Notes: a model not told the origin generated them from the letters alone. 64,000 nt of DNA from a virus (IMGVR_UViG_3300021399_000109:94710-158709), one strand, 5' to 3'; counted from the stretch's first letter, positions 1,471 to 42,720 are shown. Program-made: numbers and translations.

Positions 1471-1499
1471 TTGACAAATAAAAATAAATAATGTAACAT
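1471..1499 (+). promoter_or_regulatory. sigma70-type promoter
   Basis: TTGACA, 17-bp spacer, TAACAT. Confidence 0.55.
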
Positions 1500-1552
1500 A
1501 AAAGCATAGAAAACAACAACACAACAACAAACAACACAAAAGGAGAAAAAAC

Positions 1553-1726
1553 ATGAGAAATCATAAAACTGTAACTGCTATTGATTACACTGTAACCATT
1601 GAAGAGTATGACGCTATGAAAAATAATGTAGCTAACATGGTAAGAAAAGCTATTCAGAGAAAGGACGAAAAAATGTTCTTTAATTCCAGTAAGGAATACT
1701 ATAGAAGATATAAAAAAGAAGCCTAA
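1553..1726 (+). CDS. hypothetical small protein (57 aa)
   Basis: RBS AAAGGAGAAAAAACATG, identical to other early genes. Promoter at 1471-1499. Below the ORF-track length cutoff. Confidence 0.45.
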   Translation: MRNHKTVTAIDYTVTIEEYDAMKNNVANMVRKAIQRKDEKMFFNSSKEYYRRYKKEA

Positions 1727-1761
1727 AATCAAAATCTAAAACATAAAAAAGGGGATAAACC

Positions 1762-1926
1762 ATGAAAGAAACAAAAGAGCTGAAAGAATACAGAAGAAAC
1801 GCAAAAACTGTAGCTAAAGACTTTGGCTATGACGAAATTATGCCAGATGTAATTAAAAGAATTAATCAGGCAAAAACAGAATCAGAAATTAGCAGAATTT
1901 TAGCCACTTGTAGAAAAAAGTGGTAA
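1762..1926 (+). CDS. hypothetical small protein (54 aa)
   Basis: RBS AAAAGGGGATAAACCATG. Followed by terminator at 1934-1968. Confidence 0.4.
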   Translation: MKETKELKEYRRNAKTVAKDFGYDEIMPDVIKRINQAKTESEISRILATCRKKW

Positions 1927-1933
1927 GGGCTAC

Positions 1934-1968
1934 GAAAACAGGAAAGATAAATCTTTCCTGTTTTTTTT
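1934..1968 (+). terminator. rho-independent terminator
   Basis: ACAGGAAAGATAAATCTTTCCTGT followed by T8. Confidence 0.7.
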
Positions 1969-1988
1969 ATTTATCTTGCGCATTTTAA

Positions 1989-2160
1989 GTTTTTAACAAC
2001 TGAAAAAATAATAATAAAAAAAATTCAGTTGTTAAAAACAATAAATAATCTAAAATTGTTTTTGACAACTAAAAAAAAATATTTCAGTTGTCAAAAACAA
2101 AAAAATATATATAGTTTTCAACAACTGAAAAAATATAGAAAAATATCAGTTGTTAAAAAC
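1989..2160. repeat. same motif family, 6 copies including G/C variants
   Basis: Copies at 1989(rc), 2027, 2057(rc variant), 2084 (variant), 2114(rc variant) and 2148. Confidence 0.85.
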
Positions 2161-2259
2161 AATTAACATAAAATAAATAAAAAAAAATAGTTGACGAATT
2201 GAATAAAGTATGATATTATTTAATTACAGTAAATAATGCAATTCAAAAGGAGATTAACC

Positions 2260-2550
2260 ATGATTTTTTATGAAGGAATAGACCGTCAGATTTATACAGA
2301 TAAAGAATGTACAAAAGAAATTACAAAAGGTTTTAAAGATAATGACGTTTTAATGCTTAGATATATGCCTTTTGCCGTATATGATGAATTTATTGGATTT
2401 TGTTATCCTATTTTAAAATCCTTATTTATGAATTGTAAGTGGTGGAACGTTTATATTAATGATAACAAAGATTTAGTATTGTACAATGAAGATATGGGAG
2501 AAGAAAATTTTTATTTTTTAAAAGATTTAAAAATAACGCTTGACAATTAA
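2260..2550 (+). CDS. hypothetical early protein
   Basis: RBS CAAAAGGAGATTAACCATG. Internal ATG of the ORF-track frame is chosen. Confidence 0.5.
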   Translation: MIFYEGIDRQIYTDKECTKEITKGFKDNDVLMLRYMPFAVYDEFIGFCYPILKSLFMNCKWWNVYINDNKDLVLYNEDMGEENFYFLKDLKITLDN

Positions 2551-14574: not shown

Positions 14575-15528
14575 ATGACAGGGAAAGAAGAAAAGGATTT
14601 AAAAGTATATAATGAAATTATGGGTATTATAGAAAAAAATAAAGAAAAAGATTATCTTTTAAATTTCTTTTATTTTCTTTCTGCAATGGCTATGCGTTCC
14701 GCAAAAGCATACCTACTGTATGTGATTAATTTTATTAATTATACTAATAAAACTCCAGAAAATTTAACTTTAAATGACTATACAGCTTATATGTTTTCTA
14801 TTAATGATAAAACATCAGCTTATAAAATAGCTGTATATTCTGCATTAAAAAAATTCTCTATTTTTTTAAAAATCAATGGAATTAATGATGCAAATCCAAT
14901 GGAATATGTTCATCGTCCTAAAGCTATTGAATCTCAAGCTACAAAACAAAAAAGAGAAATTGGTTATTTAAATAAAAAAGAAATTCAAATTTATTTAAAT
15001 AATGTAAATAATAAAAATAAAACTGTATGGGGTTGTAGGGATGCTTTAATTGTTTATCTGTTCTTAAATACAGGAATGCGTTGTTCAGCTTTGGAGCAAA
15101 TTAATGTTGAAGATATTGATTTTGAAAAAAAAGAATTAACAGTATATGAAAAAGAAGATAAAGTTATCACATATACTTTAAGTGATTCTTTAATAGAAAA
15201 AATTATTACTTGGCTCAATTATAGAAATAATATGAATTTAAAAACAAATGCTGTATTTGTGTCTAATCAATTAAATCGTATGTCTAATGTAAGTATTTAT
15301 AGAGTTATTAAAAAGTATGGTTTTAATATTGAAGGCAAAAAACTTTCCCCTCATAAGCTTAGAGCAACTTATGGTACTCAGCTTTATGACGCAACAAAAG
15401 ATATTGTTTTTGTTCAGAAAGCTATGAATCATAATAATTCTCATACCACTGAATTATATATTCGTGGTAAAGAAGATGTTGCCAGAAAACAGGCTTCAGA
15501 TATTATGGCAAAATTGACTTTTAATTAA
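14575..15528 (+). CDS. tyrosine site-specific recombinase (XerC/D or phage-integrase family)
   Basis: C-terminal HKLRATYGT (HxxR) and HNNSHTTELYI (catalytic Tyr), with SAM-like N-terminal domain organisation. Confidence 0.7.
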   Translation: MTGKEEKDLKVYNEIMGIIEKNKEKDYLLNFFYFLSAMAMRSAKAYLLYVINFINYTNKTPENLTLNDYTAYMFSINDKTSAYKIAVYSALKKFSIFLKINGINDANPMEYVHRPKAIESQATKQKREIGYLNKKEIQIYLNNVNNKNKTVWGCRDALIVYLFLNTGMRCSALEQINVEDIDFEKKELTVYEKEDKVITYTLSDSLIEKIITWLNYRNNMNLKTNAVFVSNQLNRMSNVSIYRVIKKYGFNIEGKKLSPHKLRATYGTQLYDATKDIVFVQKAMNHNNSHTTELYIRGKEDVARKQASDIMAKLTFN

Positions 15529-17014: not shown

Positions 17015-17323
17015 ATGGCAAAATTTAAATTCGAACTTCCTTTTGAACCATATGATAGAGTTTATTATGTAACAGAAGAAGGTATTTATTCATTACTTAT
17101 TACACAAATTCAAATAGTTAAATATGAAAAGAATGAAAAGACACACGTTTTTATATGTTTTCCTAATTTTCCTTTTGTTGCTCTTGAAGAATATGGAATT
17201 AATTTATTTACCGATTTTGAAGAAGCAGAGAAAAGATTAAAGCAAATTAGACGAGAAGAAAAGATAAAAAAATATCAAGAGATAGTGAAAAAGGCAATGG
17301 AAAAAAATGAAAAAAAGACTTGA
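17015..17323 (+). CDS. hypothetical protein
   Basis: RBS AAAAAGGAGATAAAAATAGATG. Confidence 0.45.
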   Translation: MAKFKFELPFEPYDRVYYVTEEGIYSLLITQIQIVKYEKNEKTHVFICFPNFPFVALEEYGINLFTDFEEAEKRLKQIRREEKIKKYQEIVKKAMEKNEKKT

Positions 17324-17391
17324 CAAAAGTAATAAAATGTGCTAACATAATAATAGACATTAAAACAAATATTGAAAGAAAGGTAAAACAA

Positions 17392-17652: not shown

Positions 17653-17662
17653 AAAAAAGTGC

Positions 17663-17691
17663 TTGACAAAAAACAAAAAGTATGTTAATAT
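17663..17691 (+). promoter_or_regulatory. promoter copy 1 of a tandem duplicated pair upstream of the tRNA/ncRNA cluster
   Basis: AAAAAAGTGCTTGACAAAA...TATGTTAATATAAT. A near-identical copy sits 96 bp downstream. Confidence 0.55.
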
Positions 17692-17758
17692 AATAATAGT
17701 TACAAACGAAGCAAAAAAAACTTACATTATTATCTTAAAAAAATATTTAAAAAAGTGC

Positions 17759-17787
17759 TTGACAAAAGCAACAAAATATGTTAAGAT
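17759..17787 (+). promoter_or_regulatory. promoter copy 2 of the tandem pair; 20 bp upstream of tRNA-Gln
   Basis: AAAAAAGTGCTTGACAAAAGCAACAAAATATGTTAAGATAAT. Confidence 0.55.
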
Positions 17788-17806
17788 AATAATGTAAGAT
17801 AAATAA

Positions 17807-17878
17807 AGGGCTATAGCCAAGCGGTAAGGCACAGGACTTTGACTCCTGCATTCGTTGGTTCGAATCCAACTAGCCCTG
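17807..17878 (+). tRNA. tRNA-Gln (anticodon TTG)
   Basis: Cloverleaf: acceptor AGGGCTA/TAGCCCT, anticodon stem CAGGA/TCCTG with loop CTTTGAC, T-arm GTTGG-TTCGAAT-CCAAC. Confidence 0.8.
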
Positions 17879-18632
17879 TTTATAGGGTGGATTTCACATC
17901 CTTTAAGATAAACGTAGTAATACGGATAAAGCAATGACCATCCATACAGGTTGTTGCGACTTATAAAAAGAAATTTTTATGAGTTCACTGGAAAATCAAT
18001 ATGGCAGACATCCTATCTAAACCTGAGAGCCAATCGGTGTAAGGCATGGTAGGTTGGGAATCTTGAAATAGGTTCTAAATAATAATCGCAGAAATGCGTG
18101 GATTGCCAATTGCTTTTAGGTACAACTGTCGCAAACGGAAGTGCTTAACTGATTGTGATTTCATATCTTAAATCGAAAGATAGGTATTGTATTACAAATT
18201 ATACTCGCAAAGTGTAAAGGATTGCGGTGAGTGGGCTGTACTCAAAAGGTATAGATGCTCAAACGTATGCCCCGTAATTCATAAAGTGTGGAACTTCAAT
18301 GCTAATGGAGATAAGAAGATAGTGTGAGCAAAAGTGCATACGGCTTACAACTGAAAACTGACTTATTCATCTGAAATATGATGACATGTGGAACTCGCAA
18401 AGTGAAACATGAAGGAGTACAAGTAGATGCAACTCTAACAGCCTGCAAGCTGTGAATCTCGCAAGGAAGAATGTGTTGAACGGAAACTTATGAAGGTGTA
18501 AGCAGTAGTTCTGCCTGTGACCAAAGCAGGTGTCAGTTCATAGCTACAGATTAATCATCTGTGTGACTGGCTTGTTCCAACGCAAGTAAATGCTATGAAA
18601 ATAGGGTCAAAAGTCTCAGCCCTAAAATTTAA
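17879..18632 (+). ncRNA. large structured noncoding RNA candidate (GOLLD/ROOL-class ornate large RNA) between tRNA-Gln and tRNA-Glu
   Basis: About 750 nt with no plausible ORF. GC is visibly higher (about 40%) than the flanks (about 25%). Many local and long-range complementary segments. Repeated ACUCGCAAAGUG-like blocks at about 18203, 18392 and 18464. Flanked by tRNAs and downstream of tandem strong promoters, as reported for GOLLD and ROOL RNAs in phages. Confidence 0.5.
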
Positions 18633-18704
18633 GGTCGGTTAGTCAAGTGGTTAAGACACAAGGTTTTCATCCTTGGAACAGGAGTTCAATTCTCCTACCG
18701 ACTA
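18633..18704 (+). tRNA. tRNA-Glu (anticodon TTC)
   Basis: Acceptor GGTCGGT/ACCGACT, anticodon stem CAAGG/CCTTG with loop TTTTCAT, T-arm AGGAG-TTCAATT-CTCCT. Confidence 0.75.
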
Positions 18705-18757
18705 TTTTCATGTTTGGTTAAAATTAGTTTATTAATAGAGAAAGGGGAAAACAAAAC

Positions 18758-18940
18758 ATGAGTAAGAAAGAGAAAAAGCGAAAAATTAAACTTTATTTTA
18801 AAGACGGAAAAACTGATACTATTCCGCAAAAACTTTGGGATGATTATGAAGTAAATAATGACCTCTTTGTGGTTAAAAAGAATGGTGAGTGGATAGCTTT
18901 TTATAAAATGGAAACTATTGACTGCATGGTAGTCGGTTAA
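18758..18940 (+). CDS. hypothetical small protein
   Basis: RBS AGAAAGGGGAAAACAAAACATG. Lies between tRNA-Glu and the next ORF. Confidence 0.4.
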   Translation: MSKKEKKRKIKLYFKDGKTDTIPQKLWDDYEVNNDLFVVKKNGEWIAFYKMETIDCMVVG

Positions 18941-19004
18941 AATTTTAAAACAGTAAAAGTTAAATCAATTATTAATTAAATATTATCAAACAAAGGAGAA
19001 AAAA

Positions 19005-19646
19005 ATGAAAACAGAAACGATGACAGTACACGAAGCACTTTCAGAAATTAAGGTAGCAGGTAAAAGAATTACATCTACTCTTTTTGAGATGGATGTAGTA
19101 ACAGCTAATAGAAAGAATGCCACTAAAATTAACGGTATTGAACCAGAAAAGTTCAATGCACAAGCAAAGGCAGATTTTCAGTCTGTTACAGACCTTTGGG
19201 CAAGACTTACTGCCATGAAAGCGGCAATTGCTACTTACAATGCTAGTCAGAAAATTACCGTAGGTGATAAGGAATATACAATTGCAGAAGCAATTTATAT
19301 GAAAGAATATGGTATGCCCCTGAAGCAGACTTTTGTTAATACGCTGAATAAGCAGTATCAGAGTGCTGTAAATAAGGTAACAACGGAAAACTCAGACTCT
19401 AAGCTTGGTGCTACTGCTGAAAGACTTGCAACTGCAAGCTTTGGTTCTAAGGATAAGGCTGATGCTGTAGAAATGGAAAAGTTCATTACTACATATAAGG
19501 AAAATAATCAGTTTATTCTGATTGACCCTATTAATGTAAAGGCGATTATTACAGAACTTCAGTCTGAAATTGATACCTTTGAAGCTAAAGTTGATTCTGC
19601 AATTCAGATTGCAAATGCAACACATACAATTACCATTGAATATTAA
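19005..19646 (+). CDS. hypothetical protein (213 aa) inside the tRNA cluster
   Basis: RBS CAAAGGAGAAAAAAATG. Codon usage is more GC-rich than neighbouring genes. Confidence 0.55.
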   Translation: MKTETMTVHEALSEIKVAGKRITSTLFEMDVVTANRKNATKINGIEPEKFNAQAKADFQSVTDLWARLTAMKAAIATYNASQKITVGDKEYTIAEAIYMKEYGMPLKQTFVNTLNKQYQSAVNKVTTENSDSKLGATAERLATASFGSKDKADAVEMEKFITTYKENNQFILIDPINVKAIITELQSEIDTFEAKVDSAIQIANATHTITIEY

Positions 19647-20124
19647 TGGGTATTAAAATATAATAAAAAGGAAACTTTTAATATATATACCCATTAGTGA
19701 CGTAAGCCATAAATAAATGTCTCTTCTTTCTTTTTGAACGGATTAGAATGAAGTAAATAAGTTAAATAAATCCGTTAGCAAGTAAGCTTATATAGACTTA
19801 AAATCTATAAAAAGCAATGGACTTTTAATCCATTTTTACAAAAAAATTAGGGTTGTTTTGTGGTTCTTATCAAAGAAAACAGTTTAGTAATAGATTAGGA
19901 AGATAAGAATGCAAAACGTAAACTAGTTATTAATTACTTGTTATTGACTAATAATTATTGATTAAAGATTATTTATTATTTCTTTATTATTAATTATTGT
20001 CTATTTATTATGGGAACTATTTTTTTCCCATTTAATAATTATAGAATCTACGAAGAAGGTTCTGTGCTGTTAGACATTTTGTAAGCCTTGGCTTCGTCCC
20101 GTAGCAGTCACTAATGGGTATTGT

Positions 20125-20214
20125 GCTAAAGTGGCAGAGTGGTTAAATGCACCTGATTGCTAATCAGGCGGTCACAAATAATGTGGCTCATAGGTTCGAA
20201 TCCTATCTTTAGCG
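20125..20214 (+). tRNA. tRNA-Ser (anticodon GCT), class II with long variable arm
   Basis: Acceptor GCTAAAG/CTTTAGC, anticodon stem CCTGA/TCAGG with loop TTGCTAA, long variable arm, T-arm ATAGG-TTCGAAT-CCTAT. Confidence 0.8.
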
Positions 20215-20493
20215 TTACACATTTTATTTATTTAAAATGCTTATTCTACATAAAGAGTTTGTAGACGATGAATTTGGCATCGTAAAAATCTAGCACACTG
20301 TTACAGTAACAGGATAAACTAACTGAGTGGCTAGACACTTAAAACCAAACAATATAGAACAAAAATTGGAGAGGTTTTTATGAGCCTTTGTACCTGTACA
20401 AGACTTAATTTTTATCTTGAGATGAACTGAAAGCTATAGATGAAAGGGAATCAAAAATAGATTGCTTGGCATGTGCCGTTGAACATGCTAATT

Positions 20494-20567
20494 GGTCTGT
20501 TAGTTCAGTTGGTAGTAACACATGTCTGTTAAACATGGGGTCGTAGGTTCAAGTCCTACACAGACCG
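20494..20567 (+). tRNA. tRNA-Asn (anticodon GTT)
   Basis: Acceptor GGTCTGT/ACAGACC, anticodon stem CATGT/ACATG with loop CTGTTAA, T-loop TTCAAGT. Confidence 0.75.
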
Positions 20568-20726
20568 TTCCTGCTGACATTTTTAATATCTGTCAGTGTT
20601 TTGAATATTTTTGTTCATTTCCTTTCTTTGTAGGCTTGGGGAGAAGCCCCTGTAAGTAGTTGATAGTTAAACAATAACCTAAAGTAAATTAAAAAAGGCA
20701 AATATAAATAATAACAAATAATATAA

Positions 20727-20800
20727 TGGGCATTAGCACAACGGTATGAGTGCAGGTGGCTTATAACCATCCGATAAGAGTTCGACTCTCTTATGCCCGA
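20727..20800 (+). tRNA. tRNA-Ile (anticodon TAT; decodes AUA)
   Basis: Acceptor TGGGCAT/ATGCCCG, D-stem GCAC/GTGC, anticodon stem GGTGG/CCATC with loop CTTATAA (TAT at 20762-20764), T-arm AAGAG-TTCGACT-CTCTT. Confidence 0.65.
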
Positions 20801-20805
20801 TTTTA

Positions 20806-20891
20806 GCTTGTATGGCAGAGTTGGCTTAATGCACCAGTCTTGAAAACTGGCAATCCAATTGGATTCGTAGGTTCAAATCCTACTGCAAGCG
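20806..20891 (+). tRNA. tRNA-Ser (anticodon TGA), class II
   Basis: Near-paralog of the Ser(GCT) gene. Anticodon stem CCAGT/ACTGG with loop CTTGAAA, long variable arm, T-loop TTCAAAT. Confidence 0.8.
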
Positions 20892-20921
20892 TTAACTATT
20901 TTTATTTAAGAGGATGGGGAA

Positions 20922-21296
20922 ATGAAGATTAATTGGTTAAGTGAAACATTACTTACTTATGAAGAAGCAATGGAATTATTAGAGCATTCTCATAAGAAAC
21001 GCTTAGAAATGGAAGATAAAAATAAATGGGACGCATATGTAAATGATTTTACATTCTACACATTTCTTAATGATACTTATGGATATATGCTTGATGAGGT
21101 TAAAAAAGAAATTGATATTAATAAGAAAAGTTATTATCCGAAAGTAAAAGAATTATTAGATTGGGAAATATTTTTAAATAAAAGTGATAAATTAATGGAG
21201 GATATTTTAAGAGATAAACCAGAAGGAAAAGATAATATTTGGGAGATTGTAGAAGATTGGTGGAAAATGTTATTTAAATTATTATATGATTGTTAA
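20922..21296 (+). CDS. hypothetical protein (124 aa) flanked by tRNA 3' end repeats
   Basis: RBS AAGAGGATGGGGAAATG. Flanked by tRNA-Ser(TGA) 3' end and a 16-bp copy of that end. Confidence 0.5.
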   Translation: MKINWLSETLLTYEEAMELLEHSHKKRLEMEDKNKWDAYVNDFTFYTFLNDTYGYMLDEVKKEIDINKKSYYPKVKELLDWEIFLNKSDKLMEDILRDKPEGKDNIWEIVEDWWKMLFKLLYDC

Positions 21297-21351
21297 TTTA
21301 AATTATTAATTTATCTACATAGGTTCAAATCCTGTTATTTCTCATTAATTT

Positions 21352-21422
21352 AGGTTGGTAGTACAATGGTAGTACAACGGTCTCCAAAACCGAAAATAGG
21401 GGTTCGATTCCTCTCCTTCCTG
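21352..21422 (+). tRNA. tRNA-Trp-like (anticodon CCA) with imperfect acceptor stem (possible pseudo-tRNA)
   Basis: D-arm GTAC-AATGGTA-GTAC, anticodon stem ACGGT/ACCGA with loop CTCCAAA, T-arm AGGGG-TTCGATT-CCTCT. Acceptor AGGTTGG/CCTTCCT has two central U-U mismatches. Confidence 0.5.
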
Positions 21423-21585
21423 CGCCCCCAGTGATAGGAATGGGTAACTTACTCTATCCGTGTGATATTTGATTCTTTTAACTACGACAACGTAAGAATT
21501 TGGTTAATCTTTTTACTGTTTTCTACGTCAGATAAGTTCACCAAGAAAACAGTTTTTAATTTTATAAGGATAATGTTTTTTATCA

Positions 21586-21660
21586 CGGAATGTAGCAAAG
21601 TGGTTTTTCTGCACACGACTTTTAATCGTGTTTACGTGGGTTCGAATCCCACCATTCCGA
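21586..21660 (+). tRNA. tRNA-Lys (anticodon TTT)
   Basis: Acceptor CGGAATG/CATTCCG, anticodon stem CACGA/TCGTG with loop CTTTTAA, T-arm GTGGG-TTCGAAT-CCCAC. Confidence 0.8.
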
Positions 21661-21662
21661 TT

Positions 21663-21750
21663 AGCCTCATAGTATAATGGAAGACGTTTTAAGCATGTAG
21701 TACACCCTATGGTTTTTGGGAGGTGCAGGTTCGATTCCTGCTGAAGGCTG
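21663..21750 (+). pseudogene. tRNA-like element / degenerate class II tRNA (anticodon not assignable)
   Basis: Good T-arm GCAGG-TTCGATT-CCTGC and a partial acceptor (AGCCT...AGGCT). I could not fold a consistent D-arm or anticodon arm by eye. Confidence 0.3.
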
Positions 21751-21768
21751 TAAGAAAGGAATTAAAAA

Positions 21769-21975
21769 ATGAAAAAAGAAGATTTGGATAAACGTATTTA
21801 TGATGTAGAACCTAATGAGATTTGTACGATGACTTATCGTGAGTATATAGATTGGGGATATGCCGAATTAGGTTATTCAAAAAAAACGGTTGAACAAATG
21901 TTAGACTTAGATAAAATGTCGGAAGATATGTTAAATGATGTATTAGAAGAACTTGATTGGCTATTGAGCAAATAG
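21769..21975 (+). CDS. hypothetical small protein
   Basis: RBS AAGAAAGGAATTAAAAAATG. Confidence 0.4.
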   Translation: MKKEDLDKRIYDVEPNEICTMTYREYIDWGYAELGYSKKTVEQMLDLDKMSEDMLNDVLEELDWLLSK

Positions 21976-21988
21976 GTAAATATATAAA

Positions 21989-22333
21989 ATGTATTATAAA
22001 GATTTTCAAGAAAAAATAATTACAATAATAGATAATGATTATATATTAAATTATAATAATCATACTTTTGATAATAGTTTTATGGAAGTTAATTCTTATG
22101 AAATGTGGCAACATATGAATAAGGATAAACTAAAAATAATTGGAATTAGTTTTAATCCGCCTTATGGTCATTATAGTTATAAAGACGTAGCTTTTGTATT
22201 TAAAGATATAAACAATGAAATATTTTGGATACATCTTACAAGAATCAGTTGGGAACATTATGTTCTTAGTGCCTTTGGAAAAGAAGACGGAGATAAAATT
22301 ATTACTGAAATATATAATAAATATAAAGTATAA
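21989..22333 (+). CDS. hypothetical protein
   Basis: ORF follows closely after the previous gene. Confidence 0.4.
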   Translation: MYYKDFQEKIITIIDNDYILNYNNHTFDNSFMEVNSYEMWQHMNKDKLKIIGISFNPPYGHYSYKDVAFVFKDINNEIFWIHLTRISWEHYVLSAFGKEDGDKIITEIYNKYKV

Positions 22334-22355
22334 AATATAAAAGGAGATAAATGAT

Positions 22356-22583
22356 ATGGAATTTAAAAGAGACATGAGTAAAAACAAAAAGAAAGCACCG
22401 ACAGATTATAAAGTTAATGATAGAGTTTTGGTGTTAACTGGTGATAATAAAGATAAAGTTGGTGTAGTAAAAGGACATTATGATGCTAATCTTATCTTAG
22501 AATTTAAGGGGAACGATGAAATGCCGACTTATACAGATAAAGTTCATTATGCCGAAGTAATCAGATGGTTTGATTGGAGTTAA
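22356..22583 (+). CDS. hypothetical protein
   Basis: RBS AAAAGGAGATAAATGATATG. Confidence 0.45.
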   Translation: MEFKRDMSKNKKKAPTDYKVNDRVLVLTGDNKDKVGVVKGHYDANLILEFKGNDEMPTYTDKVHYAEVIRWFDWS

Positions 22584-22617
22584 GTGAAATAGATAAAAAA
22601 ATTTTTTAAAAAAAAGC

Positions 22618-22646
22618 TTGACAAATTGTTAATTATGTGTTAGTAT
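22618..22646 (+). promoter_or_regulatory. sigma70-type promoter upstream of tRNA(TAA) and the TnpB/Cas12f-like gene
   Basis: TTGACA, 17-bp spacer, TAGTAT. Followed by hairpin TGTCAGATGAAGCGAAACATCTGACA at 22654-22679. Confidence 0.55.
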
Positions 22647-22685
22647 TAATAGTGTCAGATGAAGCGAAACATCTGACAATTATAT

Positions 22686-22761
22686 GCTCCCGTAGCCCAA
22701 TTAGGCAGTAGGCACAGGACTTAAAATCCTTTCAGTATGGGTTCGAATCCCATCGGGAGTA
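22686..22761 (+). tRNA. tRNA with anticodon TAA (Leu, UUA codon) but short variable arm; discriminator A
   Basis: Acceptor GCTCCCG/CGGGAGT, anticodon stem CAGGA/TCCTT with loop CTTAAAA, T-arm ATGGG-TTCGAAT-CCCAT. Preceded by promoter 22618-22646 and a hairpin. Confidence 0.6.
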
Positions 22762-22828
22762 TTTAGCATTAAAAGAATGTATAAATTAAATGCTAATTGA
22801 ATTTATTTTTATCACACGATAAAAACAA

Positions 22829-22891: not shown

Positions 22892-24247
22892 ATGTCAAAC
22901 ACACAAATTCTAACACGTAAATTTCAGATTTTTCCAGTAGGAGACAAAGAAGAGATTAATCGAGTTTATCAGTATATTAGAGATTGTCAGTATGTACAAA
23001 ACAAAGCTTATAATATTCTTATTAGTAATGTTTATTCTGCTATTATTTCTGGTAAATCAAAAGAAGAAATTAATCTGATTTATAAAAAAGGTGGAAGAAA
23101 ACCTAAAGAGAATAATCCAGATTATAGTCTTTATAATTATAATGATTTTAAAGTACCTGTAGGATTAACAATAATAGGGGCACTTCCTCAAACAGTAAAA
23201 AATGATTTAAAAACTGCTCAAAAGGCAGGATTATTTAAAGGTAACTCTGCTTTACCTAATAGAAGAAGAACGGCTAGTTTAAATATTCAACCTATATATG
23301 TTAGATTAAGAGATATTAATTTACGTAACCCTAAAATAACTTCTAAAACTGGTATTTATCATACCTATTCTTCTTATAATGATTTTTTAGATAATTTATA
23401 TTCTAAAAGAGAATTAGATATTTATCTTGCATTTGCGAATAATATTACTTTTAAATTTGTGTTAGGAAATCCTTATAAATCCTATCAAGATAGAAATATT
23501 TTACAGCATATTTTTGAAGAAGATTATTTAGTTAAGGGAAGTTCAATCTCTTTTGATAAGACTAATAAAAAAATTATGTTAAATCTGAGTATGGAAATAC
23601 CTAAAAAAGAGATTGAATTAAAAGAGGATGTCGTAGTAGGAGTTGATGTAGGATTAGCCATTCCTGCTGTTTGTGGATTAAATATAAATTCATATGCGAG
23701 AGAATACATTGGTTCTAAGGATGATTTTTTACGAGTTAGAACACAGATTTCTAATGAATGTAAAAGAGTTCAGAAGAATTTAAAAATGATTAAAGGTGGT
23801 CATGGACGTAAGAAAAAAATGAAACCTTTAGATAGATTCAGATTAAAAGAAAAAAATTTTGTTCAGACCTACAATCATATGGTCAGTAAACGTGTTGTTG
23901 ACTTTGCCGTAAAAAATCATGCAAAATATATTAATCTAGAAAATCTTAAAGGATATGATGCCAATATATTTATTTTAAGAAATTGGTCATATCATCAGCT
24001 TCAGCGGTATATTAAATACAAAGCTGAAAAATACGGAATAGAAACAAGAATGATTGACCCTTATCATACATCTCAGATTTGTTCTTGCTGTGGTCATTGG
24101 GAAGAAGGTCAAAGAATTAACCAATCAACTTTTATTTGTAAAAATCCTGAATGTAAAAATTTTGGAATAAAAATAAACGCTGATTTTAATGCTTCAAGGA
24201 ATATAGCATTATCTACAAATTTTATATCTGCCGATTCTGCCGAATAA
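22892..24247 (+). CDS. compact RNA-guided-nuclease-like protein (TnpB/Cas12f-like, 451 aa) with split RuvC and zinc finger
   Basis: RuvC-I VVVGVDVGLAIP. RuvC-II YINLENL. Zinc finger CSCCGHWEEGQRINQSTFICKNPEC. RuvC-III INADFNASRNIA. RBS AAAGAAAGGAGCAATATG. A CRISPR-like array lies 185 bp downstream. Confidence 0.8.
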   Translation: MSNTQILTRKFQIFPVGDKEEINRVYQYIRDCQYVQNKAYNILISNVYSAIISGKSKEEINLIYKKGGRKPKENNPDYSLYNYNDFKVPVGLTIIGALPQTVKNDLKTAQKAGLFKGNSALPNRRRTASLNIQPIYVRLRDINLRNPKITSKTGIYHTYSSYNDFLDNLYSKRELDIYLAFANNITFKFVLGNPYKSYQDRNILQHIFEEDYLVKGSSISFDKTNKKIMLNLSMEIPKKEIELKEDVVVGVDVGLAIPAVCGLNINSYAREYIGSKDDFLRVRTQISNECKRVQKNLKMIKGGHGRKKKMKPLDRFRLKEKNFVQTYNHMVSKRVVDFAVKNHAKYINLENLKGYDANIFILRNWSYHQLQRYIKYKAEKYGIETRMIDPYHTSQICSCCGHWEEGQRINQSTFICKNPECKNFGIKINADFNASRNIALSTNFISADSAE

Positions 24248-37697: not shown

Positions 37698-40205
37698 ATG
37701 AGTTACATTGGGATACATAATCATACGGATATTGGTAGTAATCATGAGTTCCGTGATTCAATTAATAAAGTAAAAGATTTAATTGATTATGCACATTCGC
37801 TTGGACATAAGGGTATTTGCATAACTGACCATGAATCTTTATCTGCTCATTTTAAAGCTTTAGATTATTATGAATCTAAAATGGGCGAAGAAGATTGGAA
37901 AGATTTTAAAATTGGATTAGGAAATGAAATTTATTTATGTCCTGATTTTGTTACAGCAGAAAATATAGGGAATAATTTTTATCCCCACTTTATTTTAATT
38001 GCTCTTGATGCTTTTGGGCATAAAGGATTACGTGAATTAAGTACAAAAGCATGGACTGAAAATTGTTTTTATTCTAAATGGAATAGAGTTCCTACTTATT
38101 ATAATGATTTGGCTGAAATGTTAGATGTGTATAGAGGACATATTATTGGGTCAACAGCCTGTCTTGGGTCTAGCATTAATAGACAATTACTTCAATATAA
38201 AGAAAATCCTTCAGAAGATATAGTTGTGCGTATTCGTCAATGGTTAGCATTTATGGTTGATATTTTTGGAGAAGAAAATTTCTTTATTGAACTTCAGCCC
38301 AATCCTAGTGAAGAACAGGTTTTTTGTAATCAAAAATTACTTGAATTTGCACAGGAATATAATCTTCCTTATATTATTTCTACTGATGCACACTATCTTA
38401 AAAAAGAAGATAGAGCAATTCATAAGGCTTATATTACAGCAAACAAAGAAGATGACAGAGAAGTGGATTATTTTTATCAGACTACTTATGTAATGTCAGA
38501 AGAAGAAATTCATTCTTATATGGATGGGTATTTAGGCTATGATATTGTCCAAAAAGGTATTGATAATACAATGCTTATTTATGATAGACTTGAATATTAC
38601 TCCATGAAAAAGGATTTGGAAATTCCTTTTCTTCCGCTTGATAGAACTGAACCTGATAAAAAATTAATAGATAAATATAGTAAACATATTCCTTTATTAC
38701 GAGAATTTGCTGAATCTGAATACGAATCTGATAGACATATGATTCGTGAAATGCTCAAAGGTATTGAAAAAGATGAAGTATATCAAACAGAAAGAGGATA
38801 TAACGCTACCAATGAATGTTTATCTTATATAAAACAATCTTCTGAAAAAATGGGAGTTAGATGGTCAGCATATCTTGACCAAATGGCAGATTACGTTAAT
38901 ATTATTTGGGATTGCGGTAGTGTTGTAGCTGTAGGTCGTGGTTCTGTTATTGGTTTTTGTATTGCTAATCAAATGGGAATCACACAGATTAATCCTTTAA
39001 GAGAAAATACAGCTACATTTCCTTGGAGATTCTTAAATCCAGAACGGGCAAGTATACTTGATATTGATACAGATGTTAATCCTATTTTTAGAGATAAGAT
39101 TATAAATAGATTTAAAGAAATTTATGGTGCTGATAAAGTATCCAAAGTTCTTACTTATTCTACTGAAAAAAGTAGGAGTGCTATATTAACGGCAGGTCGT
39201 GGTATTGGACTTGATAATGATTTAACTTCTTATATTGCTTCTTTGGTAGTGTTTGATAGAGGTAATCCTCGTTCATTAAAAACAATGTACTATGGTGACG
39301 AAGATAACAAACCTGTTCAAGAGTTTGTCAATGAAATGAATGAGCATCCTGACCTTTGGGAAACTGCCCAAAAACTGGAAGGTCTTTGTTCAGGTATTGG
39401 TTCTCATGCAGGTGGGGTTATTATTTGTGATAAATCGTTAATTGATACTTGTGCGTTAATTCGAACTAAATCTGGGGATGTAATTACTCAATATGACCTC
39501 CATGAAGATGAAGCAATGAGTCTTATCAAGATTGACCTCTTAGCTACTAATGCAGTATCTAAGATTCAAGAGTGTCTGGAACTGTTATTAGATAAAAGTA
39601 AGATTGAATGGCAAGGTAGTCTTCGTGATACATATGAAAAATATATTGGTGTATATAATCTTGAAAGATATGCTGAAGATATGTGGAAATTGTTATGGGA
39701 ACATAAAGTTATTAGTGCTTTCCAAATGGAAAAAGAATCAGGAAAACAAGCATTAGCTTTAGTTAAACCACATTCTGTAGATGACTTAGCGACTATTAAT
39801 TCTGTTATACGACTTATGCCGCAGGAAAAAGGGGCTGAAACTCCATTAAGTAAATTTGCAAGATTCCATGAAGATATTACCGAATGGTATCAAGAAATGA
39901 CAGATTATGGATTAACAGAAGAGGAACAGAATATTCTTAAAAATATTATTGGTGTTTCGTATGGTATTTGCGAAGCACAAGAATATTTAGTTCTTTTAAC
40001 AACACATCCTGATATAGGTGGTTTTAGTTTATCTTGGGCAGACTCTTTACGTAAAGCTGTTGCAAAAAAGAATCCTAAAGCATTTGATGAATTAGAAAAA
40101 CAGTTTTTTGAAAATGCGGTTGAAAAAGGATTAAGTAAGAATTTAGTTAATTATGTTTGGAATGTATTAATTAAAACTCAGCGTGGGTACGGGTTAAATC
40201 TTTAA
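37698..40205 (+). CDS. dnaE: DNA polymerase III alpha-type (DnaE-like) polymerase, N-terminal portion (PHP, palm, fingers), interrupted
   Basis: PHP motifs GIHNHTDIGS...H. The ORF ends ...QRGYGLNL* inside the conserved GYxFNKSH region. The continuation is at 41326. Confidence 0.8.
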   Translation: MSYIGIHNHTDIGSNHEFRDSINKVKDLIDYAHSLGHKGICITDHESLSAHFKALDYYESKMGEEDWKDFKIGLGNEIYLCPDFVTAENIGNNFYPHFILIALDAFGHKGLRELSTKAWTENCFYSKWNRVPTYYNDLAEMLDVYRGHIIGSTACLGSSINRQLLQYKENPSEDIVVRIRQWLAFMVDIFGEENFFIELQPNPSEEQVFCNQKLLEFAQEYNLPYIISTDAHYLKKEDRAIHKAYITANKEDDREVDYFYQTTYVMSEEEIHSYMDGYLGYDIVQKGIDNTMLIYDRLEYYSMKKDLEIPFLPLDRTEPDKKLIDKYSKHIPLLREFAESEYESDRHMIREMLKGIEKDEVYQTERGYNATNECLSYIKQSSEKMGVRWSAYLDQMADYVNIIWDCGSVVAVGRGSVIGFCIANQMGITQINPLRENTATFPWRFLNPERASILDIDTDVNPIFRDKIINRFKEIYGADKVSKVLTYSTEKSRSAILTAGRGIGLDNDLTSYIASLVVFDRGNPRSLKTMYYGDEDNKPVQEFVNEMNEHPDLWETAQKLEGLCSGIGSHAGGVIICDKSLIDTCALIRTKSGDVITQYDLHEDEAMSLIKIDLLATNAVSKIQECLELLLDKSKIEWQGSLRDTYEKYIGVYNLERYAEDMWKLLWEHKVISAFQMEKESGKQALALVKPHSVDDLATINSVIRLMPQEKGAETPLSKFARFHEDITEWYQEMTDYGLTEEEQNILKNIIGVSYGICEAQEYLVLLTTHPDIGGFSLSWADSLRKAVAKKNPKAFDELEKQFFENAVEKGLSKNLVNYVWNVLIKTQRGYGLNL

Positions 40206-41343
40206 TTAGACCCTCTTATACAGTAATGTATATTAAAAAACTCTTTAAATTGCGGGAAACTCCTTAGAGCATTAGTAACCAAGTTTAATTAGTAATAATT
40301 AAATGGCAAATAGTAATGTATTTGGTAAGGTAACAGCACTAATGATTGGACAATCCGCATCAAAATCTCTCAAACAAATTGTATAGAAATGGAGGGAAAA
40401 TGGGATGTAAAAGATTAAGTGATGAAGACGAAAAAAAACTTGTGGACGAATATTTAAAAGGTGTTGCTGTTAAACAATTAATGATTAAATATGGTTTTGC
40501 AAGTAAAAAGTCTATAATAGATAAAGTAAAGAAGTATTATCCAAATTATAAAGAGATGTTAGAACAGGCTAAAGAAAATCGAAAAACATATTCATTAGAT
40601 TTATCAAAAATTGATAGTCCATTTAATGCGTATCTTATTGGATTATTATTAACAGATGGCTATATTATTGATAATAATAAATTTGGTTTGCAATTAACAG
40701 ATGAAGATTGTATTCGATTTATTTCTGAAGCAACTAATAATCCATATTATTCGTATAAAACAAAAGAATATAAAACAGAATATAGAATTGTATTTAGTGG
40801 CTCTCAATATATTGAGCAATTAAAAAGATATAATATTACTGCGAAAAAATCATATACTGTTAAAGGATTTGATTTTTATGAGGACGAAATTAAATATATC
40901 CCTTTTTTAATTCGTGGAATTATTGATGGGGACGGATGTATTCATAAAACTACTAAAGGAAGTGTAAGTTTTTATATTTGTTCAATGTCTTATGACTTTA
41001 TTTTATGGATACAAGAAATATTGGAAAAACGGTTTTTTATGGAAGATACTCATATAAAACAAAGTAATATAAATAATATTTGGATAGTTGAAACTTCTTT
41101 ACAAACTAATATTTTTAAATTAATGGCAATTGTTTATGACAGACCTTATGGTATGTCTCGTAAATATAATTGTTTGAGAGAGATGTTCAGAGACTATAAT
41201 AAGAGTAACCAACAAAATTTTATTTGGAATGATGTTGGTTAATGGTATAGTCCAGACCGCAACCTTAACAGGGCTTGGGAAACCAAGTGCGGTAAAGTAA
41301 TAAGTCCCATACACTTGCTTATTCAATGATTCTTTTGCAAGAA
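40203..41343 (+). mobile_element. 1.14-kb insertion carrying a LAGLIDADG homing-endonuclease gene (group I intron-like or free-standing HEG cassette) splitting dnaE; flanked by 9-bp direct repeat TTAAATCTT
   Basis: TTAAATCTT at 40194-40202 and 41344-41352. Removing the segment plus one repeat copy restores an in-frame ...RGYGLNLNYRWNPIYWQTANL... The flanks are GC-richer and structured (paired segments AATTGCGGG/CCGCAT and ACCGCA...TGCGGT, TAGTCC after the HEG). Confidence 0.6.
40400..41242 (+). CDS. LAGLIDADG homing endonuclease (two-motif type)
   Basis: Two LAGLIDADG motifs, AYLIGLLLTDGYI and FLIRGIIDGDGCI. RBS-like AATGGAGGGAAAATGGGATG. Confidence 0.75.
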   Translation: MGCKRLSDEDEKKLVDEYLKGVAVKQLMIKYGFASKKSIIDKVKKYYPNYKEMLEQAKENRKTYSLDLSKIDSPFNAYLIGLLLTDGYIIDNNKFGLQLTDEDCIRFISEATNNPYYSYKTKEYKTEYRIVFSGSQYIEQLKRYNITAKKSYTVKGFDFYEDEIKYIPFLIRGIIDGDGCIHKTTKGSVSFYICSMSYDFILWIQEILEKRFFMEDTHIKQSNINNIWIVETSLQTNIFKLMAIVYDRPYGMSRKYNCLREMFRDYNKSNQQNFIWNDVG

Positions 41344-42720
41344 TTAAATCTTAATTATAGATGGAATCCTATTTATTGGCAAACAGCTAATCTTATTGTA
41401 GATTCTGGTTCGTTGGACAATAATTCAAATGATGCTACAGATTATGGCAAGATAGGTATTGCGATTGCAAATATTAAAAAAGAAAATGTTAATATTGAAA
41501 TTCCATTAATTAATGAAGCAGGATTTGGTTTTGAACCCGATGAAAATAATAACAGAATTATTTTTGGCTTAAAAGCAATAAATGGAATCAACACTGAAAT
41601 TTCACAAGCAATTATTCAAAACCGTCCATATAGTTCCATGGAAGATTTTGCAAGTAAACTTTTAGATACTGGAATTATTAAAAATGCTCAAATGATTAAA
41701 CTAATTAAAGCAGGTTGTTTTACTGAACTTCATAGTCCTAATAAAGAGATTACAATGGAATGGTATTTAAGAAATTATAAATATAATCCACTTAAAAAAT
41801 TAACACTAAGTCAGTTACCTGCTTTAAGAGAGAAAAAACTTATTCCAGAAGCTTTTGACAAGTGTGTCAAGATATTAATTTTAAAAGATTACATCTTAGA
41901 CGATGAAGGATTTTATGCTAATTATATTGACCCTAATAAGAAACCTTTAAAACGTGGTTATCATGATAGATATTATATTTTAGATGATAATAGTCAACCT
42001 ATTTTTAAAGATTATTTTTCTGAGAATTGTATAGTTGGAGTACAAGGGGAATATTTTTTAGTTTCAGAAAAACAGATTGATAAAGAAGCCAAAGTATTTA
42101 TAGAACCTTTCAGAGAGTGGATGAATAGTGCTGATGCTATTAATAGATATAATTTAAGTTGTTTCTTAGATGTATGGGAACAATATGCAAGTGGAAATAA
42201 AGCACATTGGTCTATGGAGTCTTTGACTTATTATGACGAAGAACACGAATTAGAAAATGTAAACGAATCTTTATATGGAATAGTTAACTTCTTTGATTTA
42301 CCTGAAGAACCTGTAGCGTATGATTGGTATACAAGATGGATTAACGGTGAAAGAAAAGTATTTCCTAAATATAATATTAGTCGTATAGCAGGTACAGTGA
42401 TTAATGCAGATAATAATCATCATATGGTATCTTTATTAACTAAATATGGATTAGTTAATGTAAAAATGAATAAAGGACATTATGCCTTTTATAATAAACA
42501 GATTTCTCAAATTGATGAAGATAATAAAAATAAAAAACATAAAATAGAAGATAGTTGGCTTAAACGTGGTCAGATGATTATTGTTTCTGGCATTAGAATG
42601 GGGGATACTTTTTATCCCAGAATTTATAATGATACAATTTATAAACATACAGTTAGTTTAATTAAAGAAGTTAATAAAAATGGAACTTTATTATTACAAA
42701 ATGAAAGGACAAAAATATAA
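41326..42720 (+). CDS. dnaE: DnaE-like polymerase, C-terminal portion
   Basis: Begins MILLQELNLNYRWNPIYWQTANL, which overlaps the LNL at the end of the N-portion and matches the ...AYALxAYQTAYLK region of PolIII alpha. Confidence 0.7.
   Translation: MILLQELNLNYRWNPIYWQTANLIVDSGSLDNNSNDATDYGKIGIAIANIKKENVNIEIPLINEAGFGFEPDENNNRIIFGLKAINGINTEISQAIIQNRPYSSMEDFASKLLDTGIIKNAQMIKLIKAGCFTELHSPNKEITMEWYLRNYKYNPLKKLTLSQLPALREKKLIPEAFDKCVKILILKDYILDDEGFYANYIDPNKKPLKRGYHDRYYILDDNSQPIFKDYFSENCIVGVQGEYFLVSEKQIDKEAKVFIEPFREWMNSADAINRYNLSCFLDVWEQYASGNKAHWSMESLTYYDEEHELENVNESLYGIVNFFDLPEEPVAYDWYTRWINGERKVFPKYNISRIAGTVINADNNHHMVSLLTKYGLVNVKMNKGHYAFYNKQISQIDEDNKNKKHKIEDSWLKRGQMIIVSGIRMGDTFYPRIYNDTIYKHTVSLIKEVNKNGTLLLQNERTKI

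Follow-up and report, generated by a model that had tools for sequence, protein, structure and literature searches.

A probable divergent GOLLD RNA in the tRNA cluster of a large, low-GC sheep-rumen phage

Introduction

GOLLD RNAs are among the largest and most elaborate RNAs of bacteria and phages. Expression as a stable RNA, at levels that rise during lytic growth, counts among the marks of the class. Another large RNA, ROOL (rumen-originating, ornate, large), was first found in the rumen. The subject of this paper is a segment of the viral DNA IMGVR_UViG_3300021399_000109:94710-158709, a stretch of 64,000 nucleotides (nt) called "the window" below. The segment is situated at positions 17879-18632 of the plus strand, between two transfer RNA (tRNA) genes, and a preliminary description had proposed that it is a giant structured RNA of the GOLLD/ROOL class. 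Judging from its sequence, we put the probability at about 0.9 that it is the gene for a divergent GOLLD RNA, lying in the tRNA cluster of a large sheep-rumen phage of low guanine-cytosine (GC) content. The phage of the window has been assembled many times over, and one of the sources, SRR873610, is a sheep-rumen metagenome of Shi et al. 2014, for which paired metatranscriptomes exist (SRR873450-457, SRR873459-465 and SRR1206249).

GOLLDs assemble into cages made of RNA only, as was shown recently (PMC12286853; reviewed in PMC12990946). The lake-type GOLLD env-38 is 833 nt long and forms a 14-mer cage (PDB 9MEE; PMC12286853). The GOLLD of Streptococcus agalactiae, which has 700 nt, forms a dodecamer (PDB 9L0R) and is still cage-forming with several 5'-domain helices absent (PMC12990946). 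In other GOLLDs a tRNA is embedded in the linker, for example tRNA-Phe in J13/15 in the tRNA arrays of Mycolicibacterium (PMC12990946). The cage has been suggested to enclose tRNAs, ribosomes or other cargo (PMC12286853, PMC12990946).

The window RNA has the two-domain layout of env-38 and other lake-type GOLLDs, with the full set of 3'-domain helices, the CAAAA loop, the AGCAAAAGU junction, the CGCAA-type loops and the terminal GUCUCAGCC. The 5' domains are collinear, both having AUAAA-hairpin(GNRA)-GGAUAAAG followed by GCGRYUU-hairpin-GAGYU, and the phage setting beside tRNAs is also the same. However, the window RNA is 754 nt long, compared with about 830 nt, its linker is short, and the loop of its first hairpin appears to pair with a different downstream segment. 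In its compactness and similar size it resembles the S. agalactiae GOLLD, which has a Firmicutes context, as far as the published description of the latter allows a comparison; that RNA lacks P21b, whereas the window RNA keeps both hairpins there (18439-18452 and 18455-18472). A sister lineage, group B below, has a tRNA at the same place as the Mycolicibacterium type, between the CAAAA hairpin and AGCAAAAGU. In contrast, the linker of the window and its closer relatives (group A) is tRNA-free and the tRNAs are found on both sides instead. ROOL is likewise a large, cage-forming, phage-associated RNA that occurs beside tRNAs and in the rumen, but its sequence and fold are unrelated.

Location, boundaries and composition

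The segment fills exactly the 754 nt between two tRNA genes, as called by ARAGORN and Rfam:

17807-17878, plus strand: tRNA-Gln(UUG), found by ARAGORN and by Rfam (69.9 bits); CCA is not encoded
18633-18704, plus strand: tRNA-Glu(UUC), found by ARAGORN and by Rfam (65.4 bits)

These are two of nine tRNAs found by ARAGORN within 17807-22762, and the spacers between them and the RNA measure just 0-11 nt. The interval given in the preliminary description coincides with this spacer to the nucleotide. The GC content of the segment is 38.5% (35% in the 5' part and 42% in the 3' part), against 28.3% for the whole window, and only 9 of 1265 sliding windows of 754 nt are equally GC-rich; the shift reported earlier thus has the right direction, although its magnitude (40 versus 25%) was slightly overstated. 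The longest open reading frames (ORFs) have 48 amino acids on the minus strand and 46 on the plus strand, in agreement with the earlier statement that none exceeds 60. The fold energy of the plus strand is -201.6 kcal/mol (z = -3.3 relative to shuffled sequence). For the minus strand the value is -161.5 kcal/mol (z = -1.6), with no marked gain over shuffled sequence. The segment holds three of the four matches of the motif CTCGCAARG in 64 kilobases (kb), at 18204, 18394 and 18458, where 0.1 would be expected. The recurrent blocks noted previously are therefore real, the third having been placed a few bases off, at 18464. At least two of these three CUCGCAAAGUG-type blocks are CGCAA hairpin loops of the GOLLD 3' domain.

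Match to the GOLLD family

A scan of the window at the default Rfam gathering thresholds reports tRNAs only and no GOLLD, for which (RF02032) the curated threshold is 150 bits. With relaxed thresholds, limited by E-value, RF02032 matches 18219-18622 on the plus strand over its full length (model positions 1-416 of 416) with 102.7 bits and E = 1.3e-27. The alignment contains the hallmark strings UCAAAAG, AGCAAAAGU, CGCAA and GUCUCAGCC. All of the GOLLD signatures are present, at 18243-18247, 18327-18335, 18396-18400, 18460-18464 and 18613-18621, and they are conserved across the clade of relatives described below. Of the 92 base pairs of the model, 85 map onto the window sequence and 80 of these 85 are canonical. 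When the whole RNA is modelled, 139 of 146 pairs are canonical; 24 of them are G-U pairs, which fixes the plus strand as the strand of the RNA.

The rumen habitat, in which ROOL was discovered, and the ORFs of 41-55 amino acids that gene callers place here in some assemblies might point to another large RNA class or to small proteins. This explanation is refuted. A covariance-model search, the check advised in the preliminary description, gave no match to ROOL, OLE, raiA, introns or ribosomal RNA (rRNA) at E <= 10 in 17700-18800, which rules out ROOL, OLE, raiA, a group I or II intron and an rRNA fragment. GOLLD and tRNA are the only meaningful matches in Rfam, all others up to E = 10 being short and far below their gathering scores. 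The small size of the longest ORF argues against proteins, as does the fact that the substitutions track base-pairing and not codons. Of the two classes proposed initially, GOLLD matches at full length and ROOL does not; the comparative alignment, also proposed at that stage, has revealed a structure that is conserved and covaries among related phages, and signs of protein coding are absent.

Relatives of the window RNA

A degenerate pattern of the GOLLD core gave 88 viral loci, and a stricter, clade-specific pattern gave 19 metagenome loci. A neighbouring protein led to two sibling phage contigs and a clade-invariant 19-mer to one contig of a metagenome-assembled genome (MAG). The groups were sorted by blastn. 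About 20 relatives were found, forming three lineages, in rumen metagenomes, IMG/VR and one Kineothrix MAG. Group A consists of the window and L093, L090, L101, L104, L109 and L094, which have 83-99% identity, are bracketed by tRNAs and have no linker tRNA. Group B comprises 12 distinct sequences, including L095 (1043-1863), L037 and L099, with about 70% identity in the 3' half. The third lineage is represented by L117 (CAZFLR010000019.1, about 1499-2262, minus strand; 97.3 bits), on a 42.6-kb contig of a Kineothrix sp. MAG. The GOLLD scores of the relatives are between 97 and 107 bits in Rfam. The lineages share only about 70% identity, yet their loops and junctions do not vary. The neighbouring protein occurs on at least 24 contigs, one of which is 158.9 kb long, and the six that were examined all carry the RNA with 96.7-100% identity. 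In the GOLLD region the 158-kb contig ERZ28612961 scaffold_83 does not differ from the window.

No close sequenced relative of the phage was found; the polymerases of SPbeta and Geobacillus GR1 share 38% identity with that of the phage. A blastn search of the region against 50,697 phage records returned the flanking tRNAs only, and a megablast search with 20 kb of the phage gave zero matches. Nothing was found in a first scan of genome contigs with the 3'-core pattern. In a second scan, L116 proved to be a chance match, unlike the true relative L117. The divergent lineage was not found in a literature search, and the clade signature strings were not found in the part of the published GOLLD alignment, which is gapped, that was searched. 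The hosts are probably Clostridia such as Kineothrix. The binning of L117 in a Lachnospiraceae MAG is the sole host hint, and the binning of phage contigs is unreliable.

Structure of the 3' domain

The 3' domain consists of the following elements:

18219-18280, plus strand: first 3'-domain element, with a 9-base-pair (bp) outer stem and an inner hairpin having an A-rich CAAAA loop of the L14 type at 18243-18247
18281-18326, plus strand: variable linker, short and tRNA-free here; tRNA insertion point in the sister lineage
18327-18335, plus strand: junction AGCAAAAGU (J13/15 core), within the Rfam consensus and invariant in 19 of 19 sequences
18343-18503, plus strand: 3'-domain core, closed by the long-range helix 18343-18352 / 18494-18503
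18367-18384, 18385-18411 (CGCAA), 18439-18452 (CUGCAA) and 18455-18472 (CGCAA), plus strand: hairpins in the core, from Rfam and the alignment A2
18513-18621, plus strand: 3' end of the domain, with the hairpin 18513-18531 and the stem 18539-18544/18592-18597
18545-18563 (loop UAAUC) and 18570-18587 (loop UUCCAACG), plus strand: hairpins in the stem 18539-18597
18605-18621, plus strand: terminal element, carrying GUCUCAGCC; GUCUCAGC agrees with the Rfam consensus

The Rfam consensus structure, which is independent of the clade sequences, was projected onto a MAFFT alignment of 19 sequences (A2). In the 3' domain, standard pairs account for 83.5% of the alignment cells (35-43% in slid controls). 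Changes on both sides affect 33 pairs, where the slid controls give 2-11. None of 500 shuffles reached the observed values. Pairing reaches at least 97% in nine of the 13 helices, and 100% in seven of these nine. The outer helix of 18219-18280 is 100% paired, with four covarying pairs, and its (U/C)CAAAAG loop is kept in all 18 relatives that cover 18243-18247. The helices within 18513-18621 are 97-100% paired with three to five covarying pairs each, and an extra hairpin there is supported by RNAalifold. For the hairpin 18455-18472, the stem preferred by RNAalifold has 3 bp and a CGCAA loop, and this shorter stem covaries.

Two of the Rfam helices look poorly paired (40% and 43%) in the MAFFT alignment. 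One is the hairpin 18455-18472, to which the shorter stem above applies. The other is the long-range helix, which duplex prediction finds as GCUUACA/UGUAAGC in the window, CUUAUAGA/UCUAUGAG in L109, ACUCUAUG/CAUAGAGU in group B and CAGGG/CCCUG in L117. Since this helix covaries in four lineages, its poor pairing is the result of misalignment of the strands. The comparison shows homology of the 3' 404 nt with the GOLLD 3' domain, which is conserved universally, and a fold that is held by compensatory substitutions.

Structure of the 5' domain

The 5' domain was folded with RNAalifold on A2:

17879-18218, plus strand: 5' domain, about 340 nt, 13 helices
17885-17901, plus strand: first hairpin, GGGUG/CAUCC with loop GAUUU; three pairs covary between groups A and B
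17908-17931, plus strand: second hairpin, the GOLLD signature AUAAA-CGUA-GUAA-UACG-GAUAAAG with a GNRA tetraloop
17931-17985, plus strand: third and fourth hairpins, GCAAUGA/UUGUUGC and GACUU/GAGUU, with a 12-bp AU extension
18009-18056, plus strand: three-helix arm with GAGAGCCAAUCGGUGUAAGG, homologous to the canonical GAGGGCAACGCUGUAGGG of the lake-type consensus
18087-18098, plus strand: hairpin CGCA-GAAA-UGCG, with a conserved GAAA loop; three of the four pairs covary
18112-18213, plus strand: 3' arm of the 5' domain, with the hairpin 18118-18146 (CGCAA loop)
18163-18187, plus strand: clade-invariant AUCUUAAAUCGAAAGAUAGGU hairpin in the 3' arm
18203-18214, plus strand: first CUCGCAAAGUG block, in the 3' arm

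Over the 61 pairs of this domain, 98.5% of the cells in A2 are paired, and 27 pairs are changed on both sides, compared with 1-4 in slid controls. The signature AUAAA-hairpin(GNRA)-GGAUAAAG is present in 64 of 78 IMG/VR GOLLD loci, where it has the form AUAAA-CUAC/CCAC-GAAA-GUAG/GUGG-GAUAAAG and is situated 467-516 nt upstream of the core; it is found in env-38 as well. Within the clade the stem of the second hairpin covaries (CG to UA and GC to AU) while its loop stays GNRA (GUAA, GCAA, GUGA or GCGA). The third hairpin has multiple compensatory changes, and the flanks GCGACUU...GAGUU are common to the window RNA and env-38. The pairing of 18209-18213 is ambiguous, either long-range with 18112-18116 or within a local hairpin, 18201-18215.

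The loop GAUUU of the first hairpin may pair with AAAUC at 17993-17997, forming a candidate pseudoknot. Loop and partner change together from GAUUU/AAAUC in group A to GGUUU/AAACC in group B in 18 of 18 sequences, which represents one evolutionary event. A pseudoknot of the canonical type, between this loop and GAGUUCAC, was rejected: group B has not kept it, and its formation would be in competition with the stem of the hairpin.

Strains that are 96.7-99.5% identical to the window have no substitution at a paired site that breaks the pair. Five fully compensated pairs occur in near-identical strains (about 97%), at 18009-18011/18054-18056 and 18022-18024/18042-18044. The alignments show that the 5' 340 nt correspond to a compact version of the canonical GOLLD 5' domain, and the pattern of substitutions shows purifying selection for the predicted structure, even among near-identical strains.

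Transcription and processing

Three near-identical promoter-like sequences are situated upstream:

17319-17351 (core 17320-17348), plus strand: copy 1, a full consensus match, preceding the upstream small ORF
17662-17694 (core 17663-17691), plus strand: copy 2, CTTGACAAA...TGTTAATATAAT, TTGACA-17-TAATAT with an extended -10 TG
17758-17790 (core 17759-17787), plus strand: copy 3, ending 17 nt upstream of tRNA-Gln

All three are of the sigma-70 type, with the sequence CTTGACAAA...TGTTAAnATAAT, or TTGACA-17-TAAnAT plus an extended -10 element. They are the only full matches to CTTGACAAA-N-TGNTAANATAAT in the window, where none is expected by chance. Copies 2 and 3 bear out the tandem strong promoters claimed in the preliminary description. 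No terminator-like site was found between copy 3 (17758-17790) and 19425, and in group A neither a promoter nor a terminator was found between tRNA-Gln and tRNA-Glu. The GOLLD RNA would thus be made within a tRNA precursor and freed by tRNA processing. In this scheme, transcription from the tandem promoters at 17662 and 17758, the latter (copy 3) being the presumed start, would yield a tRNA-Gln / GOLLD / tRNA-Glu transcript. A cleavage of the RNase Z type after tRNA-Gln, as part of its 3' processing, would generate the 5' end of the GOLLD RNA and RNase P cleavage before tRNA-Glu its 3' end, releasing an RNA of about 754 nt.

Such close coupling would also fit a structured spacer that acts mainly in cis, controlling the processing or relative yield of tRNA-Gln and tRNA-Glu and forming no free cage: the tRNAs nearly abut the RNA, the promoters are common to both, and the sister lineage has a tRNA inside its linker. 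The relatives make this very improbable. In group B a promoter belonging to the RNA itself (TTGAAA-17-TATAAT) is found about 25 nt upstream, and a canonical terminator, AGUCUCUUCGGAGACUUUUUU, directly after GUCUCAGCUCU. The RNA of L117 is about 250 nt from the upstream tRNA. The closest sibling phage, L089 (IMGVR_UViG_3300031867_000085), whose neighbouring protein is 95% identical to that of the window, retains tRNA-Gln, the first two hairpins and tRNA-Glu, while everything from the third hairpin to the RNA end has been removed by a clean deletion of ~690 nt; both tRNAs are thus kept without the RNA. Furthermore, the conserved loops match, by the indirect mapping given below, the inter-subunit contacts of solved cages.

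The linker tRNA of group B is tRNA-Leu(GAG) in L037 and L095 and tRNA-Ile(GAU) in L099. Together with the promoter and terminator, it shows the RNA to be a self-contained module, which is shuffled from one tRNA cluster to another. In L100 (110-939) and L105 (4886-4959) the linker tRNA either escapes ARAGORN or shows an anticodon loop of 8 bases (anticodon "tgag"), and this embedded tRNA may be degenerating in part of group B.

The tRNA-Gln(UUG) genes of the relatives occur in two unrelated versions, as seen on comparing the window (17807-17878) with L093 (662-734), L090 (4635-4707) and L089 (187-259). One has a canonical T-loop (window, L101) and the other an odd T-arm, GGAGCGUAACC (L093, L090, L104, L089). 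The GOLLD RNA of L093 is 99.4% identical to that of the window despite the unrelated tRNA-Gln, which places a recombination breakpoint exactly at the tRNA/GOLLD junction. L104 (1772-2513) is 89% identical to the window until RNA position ~613 and has a very different 3' end thereafter, in which the same helices are kept, for example ACUUCU/GGAAGU for ACAGAU/AUCUGU. The alternatives for this copy are a recombinant GOLLD and a chimeric assembly. L094 carries at 1793-1865 on the minus strand a tRNA with a CUA anticodon ("Pyl" according to ARAGORN), which may be an amber suppressor.

Inter-subunit contacts

In the env-38 14-mer the subunits are held together by ten bridges, for which the residues have been tabulated (Kretsch et al. 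2025, PMC12286853). These residues were mapped onto the window RNA by way of the Rfam consensus and a PDF-derived copy of env-38 that has 816 of the 833 nt and differs from the Stockholm row, so that all of the correspondences in this paragraph are inferred. Bridge B1 is made by the loop adenines A34/A35 of the second hairpin's GNRA loop (PMC12286853), which is GUAA here and GNRA throughout the clade. The B6 adenines, A447/A448 of a CAAAA loop (PMC12286853), would correspond to the CAAAA at 18243-18247. In B7, two loop bases pair with two junction bases, UC with GA in env-38 (PMC12286853); the candidate here is the loop CGCAA at 18396-18400, in one of the repeated blocks noted earlier, and its predicted partner is the GC of AGCAAAAGU, giving GC with GC as in the consensus. 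In B8 and B9 two more loops are joined by symmetric G-C kisses (PMC12286853), matched here by the GC in the CUGCAA (18443-18448) and CGCAA (18460-18464) loops.

By these contacts, namely the GNRA loop of the second hairpin, the CAAAA loop, CGCAA with AGCAAAAGU, and the GC loops of the two following hairpins, the RNA would assemble with its own copies into a closed RNA-only cage of about 10-14 subunits, similar to the solved GOLLDs. Its role would most likely be an accessory one in lytic growth, with a link to tRNA or translation. A more specific proposal, which we consider doubtful, is that of a structurally reduced GOLLD, in which the shorter 5' cap and an altered contact loop could lead to a different subunit number, and RNase P and RNase Z, by releasing the RNA, could couple assembly to tRNA maturation. 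Phage tRNAs might then be held or shielded by the cage, or the cage might act as a decoy for host nucleases that target tRNA, in a phage that carries an RNA ligase.

Strength of the assignment

Every structural and contextual GOLLD feature that could be tested is present, as are most of the contact loops, and the RNA is therefore assigned to the GOLLD class. Several observations weigh against this assignment or narrow it. The score is below the gathering threshold (102.7 versus 150 bits), which is a curation cut-off rather than a biological feature, and at about 100 bits the window copy attains about a third of the 310-340 bits of 13 ordinary, lake-type GOLLDs from IMG/VR. The mapping of contact residues is indirect and imperfect, since it depends on the Rfam consensus and a partly garbled env-38 sequence. 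The loop of hairpin 18545-18563, corresponding to the loop whose adenines make B10, is UUAAUC compared with UCAAAAG in lake-type GOLLDs, and this contact may, as read from the loop, differ from that of the lake type. With about 340 nt, where canonical GOLLDs have about 400-420, the 5' domain is ~60-90 nt shorter than in the lake type, roughly one arm being gone, so that the oligomeric state is not to be assumed. The fold of the 5' domain was predicted from the same alignment that was used for counting its covariation, which arises largely from a single deep split between groups of 7 and 11 sequences; the pattern in near-identical strains and the recognisable canonical 5' domain remove most of this worry. 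Finally, the clean deletion in L089 shows that the RNA is an accessory element, dispensable in some settings.

The low score, the shortened 5' domain, the missing promoter and terminator in the window lineage and the loss of nearly all of the RNA from the closest sibling would also be expected of a decaying GOLLD remnant, or of a mere spacer of the tRNA operon, that is homologous but non-functional. We regard this as very unlikely. Decay is contradicted by the 139 canonical pairs among the 146 modelled in the window copy, by the retention of pairing at every substituted paired site in near-identical strains, and by the loops and junctions that stay invariant between the distant lineages. Identical or nearly identical RNAs are found, moreover, on several independently assembled contigs (all six examined of the at least 24 with the neighbouring protein).

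Neighbouring genes

The phage encodes a DnaE-type polymerase, DnaB, NrdD, an RNA ligase and an endolysin in addition to the nine tRNAs. With replication and lysis genes present, the location in a phage and next to tRNAs is typical for GOLLD.

14575-15528, plus strand: tyrosine integrase (Pfam Phage_integrase, 2.3e-30)
21664-21749, plus strand: tRNA-like match of 28.7 bits (gathering score 29) right after tRNA-Lys (21586-21660), without an ARAGORN call
22892-24247, plus strand: TnpB-like ORF of 451 amino acids; Cas12f1-like TNB domain (Pfam 1.1e-18), PHROG match to "transposase"
37698-42720, plus strand: DnaE-type polymerase in two ORFs (37698-40205 and 41326-42720), with a LAGLIDADG homing-endonuclease ORF (40346-41242) between them
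50659-52020, plus strand: RNA ligase gene (Pfam PF09414, phrog_968)

The integrase suggests that the phage, of roughly 158 kb, is temperate. The tRNA cluster ends with tRNA-Leu (22685-22762), which the TnpB-like ORF follows directly. Rfam detected no intron in the split polymerase region 37698-42720. The RNA ligase, in a phage having nine tRNAs and a GOLLD RNA, may have a bearing on tRNA repair. Among 13 typical lake-type loci from IMG/VR, seven (L002, L003, L008, L010, L022, L024 and L033) have a phage-encoded transfer-messenger RNA (75-115 bits) within about 0.1-2 kb of the GOLLD.

Significance

The class of molecule was known already, and the finding reveals neither a new kind of molecule nor a function. 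What is new is a divergent GOLLD lineage with three sub-lineages, in the sheep-rumen and related metagenomes, that is missed by default Rfam annotation. An Rfam model retrained with this lineage would allow wider detection. The relatives provide natural experiments: a sibling from which the RNA is deleted, a linker tRNA that is present or absent, and a promoter and terminator of its own that are present or absent. The compact 5' domain would be a useful case for how differences in secondary structure set the stoichiometry of the cage. The three variants, namely the tRNA-bracketed RNA of the window, the group B RNA with its linker tRNA and the deletion in L089, make the idea of a tRNA-coupled cage directly testable.

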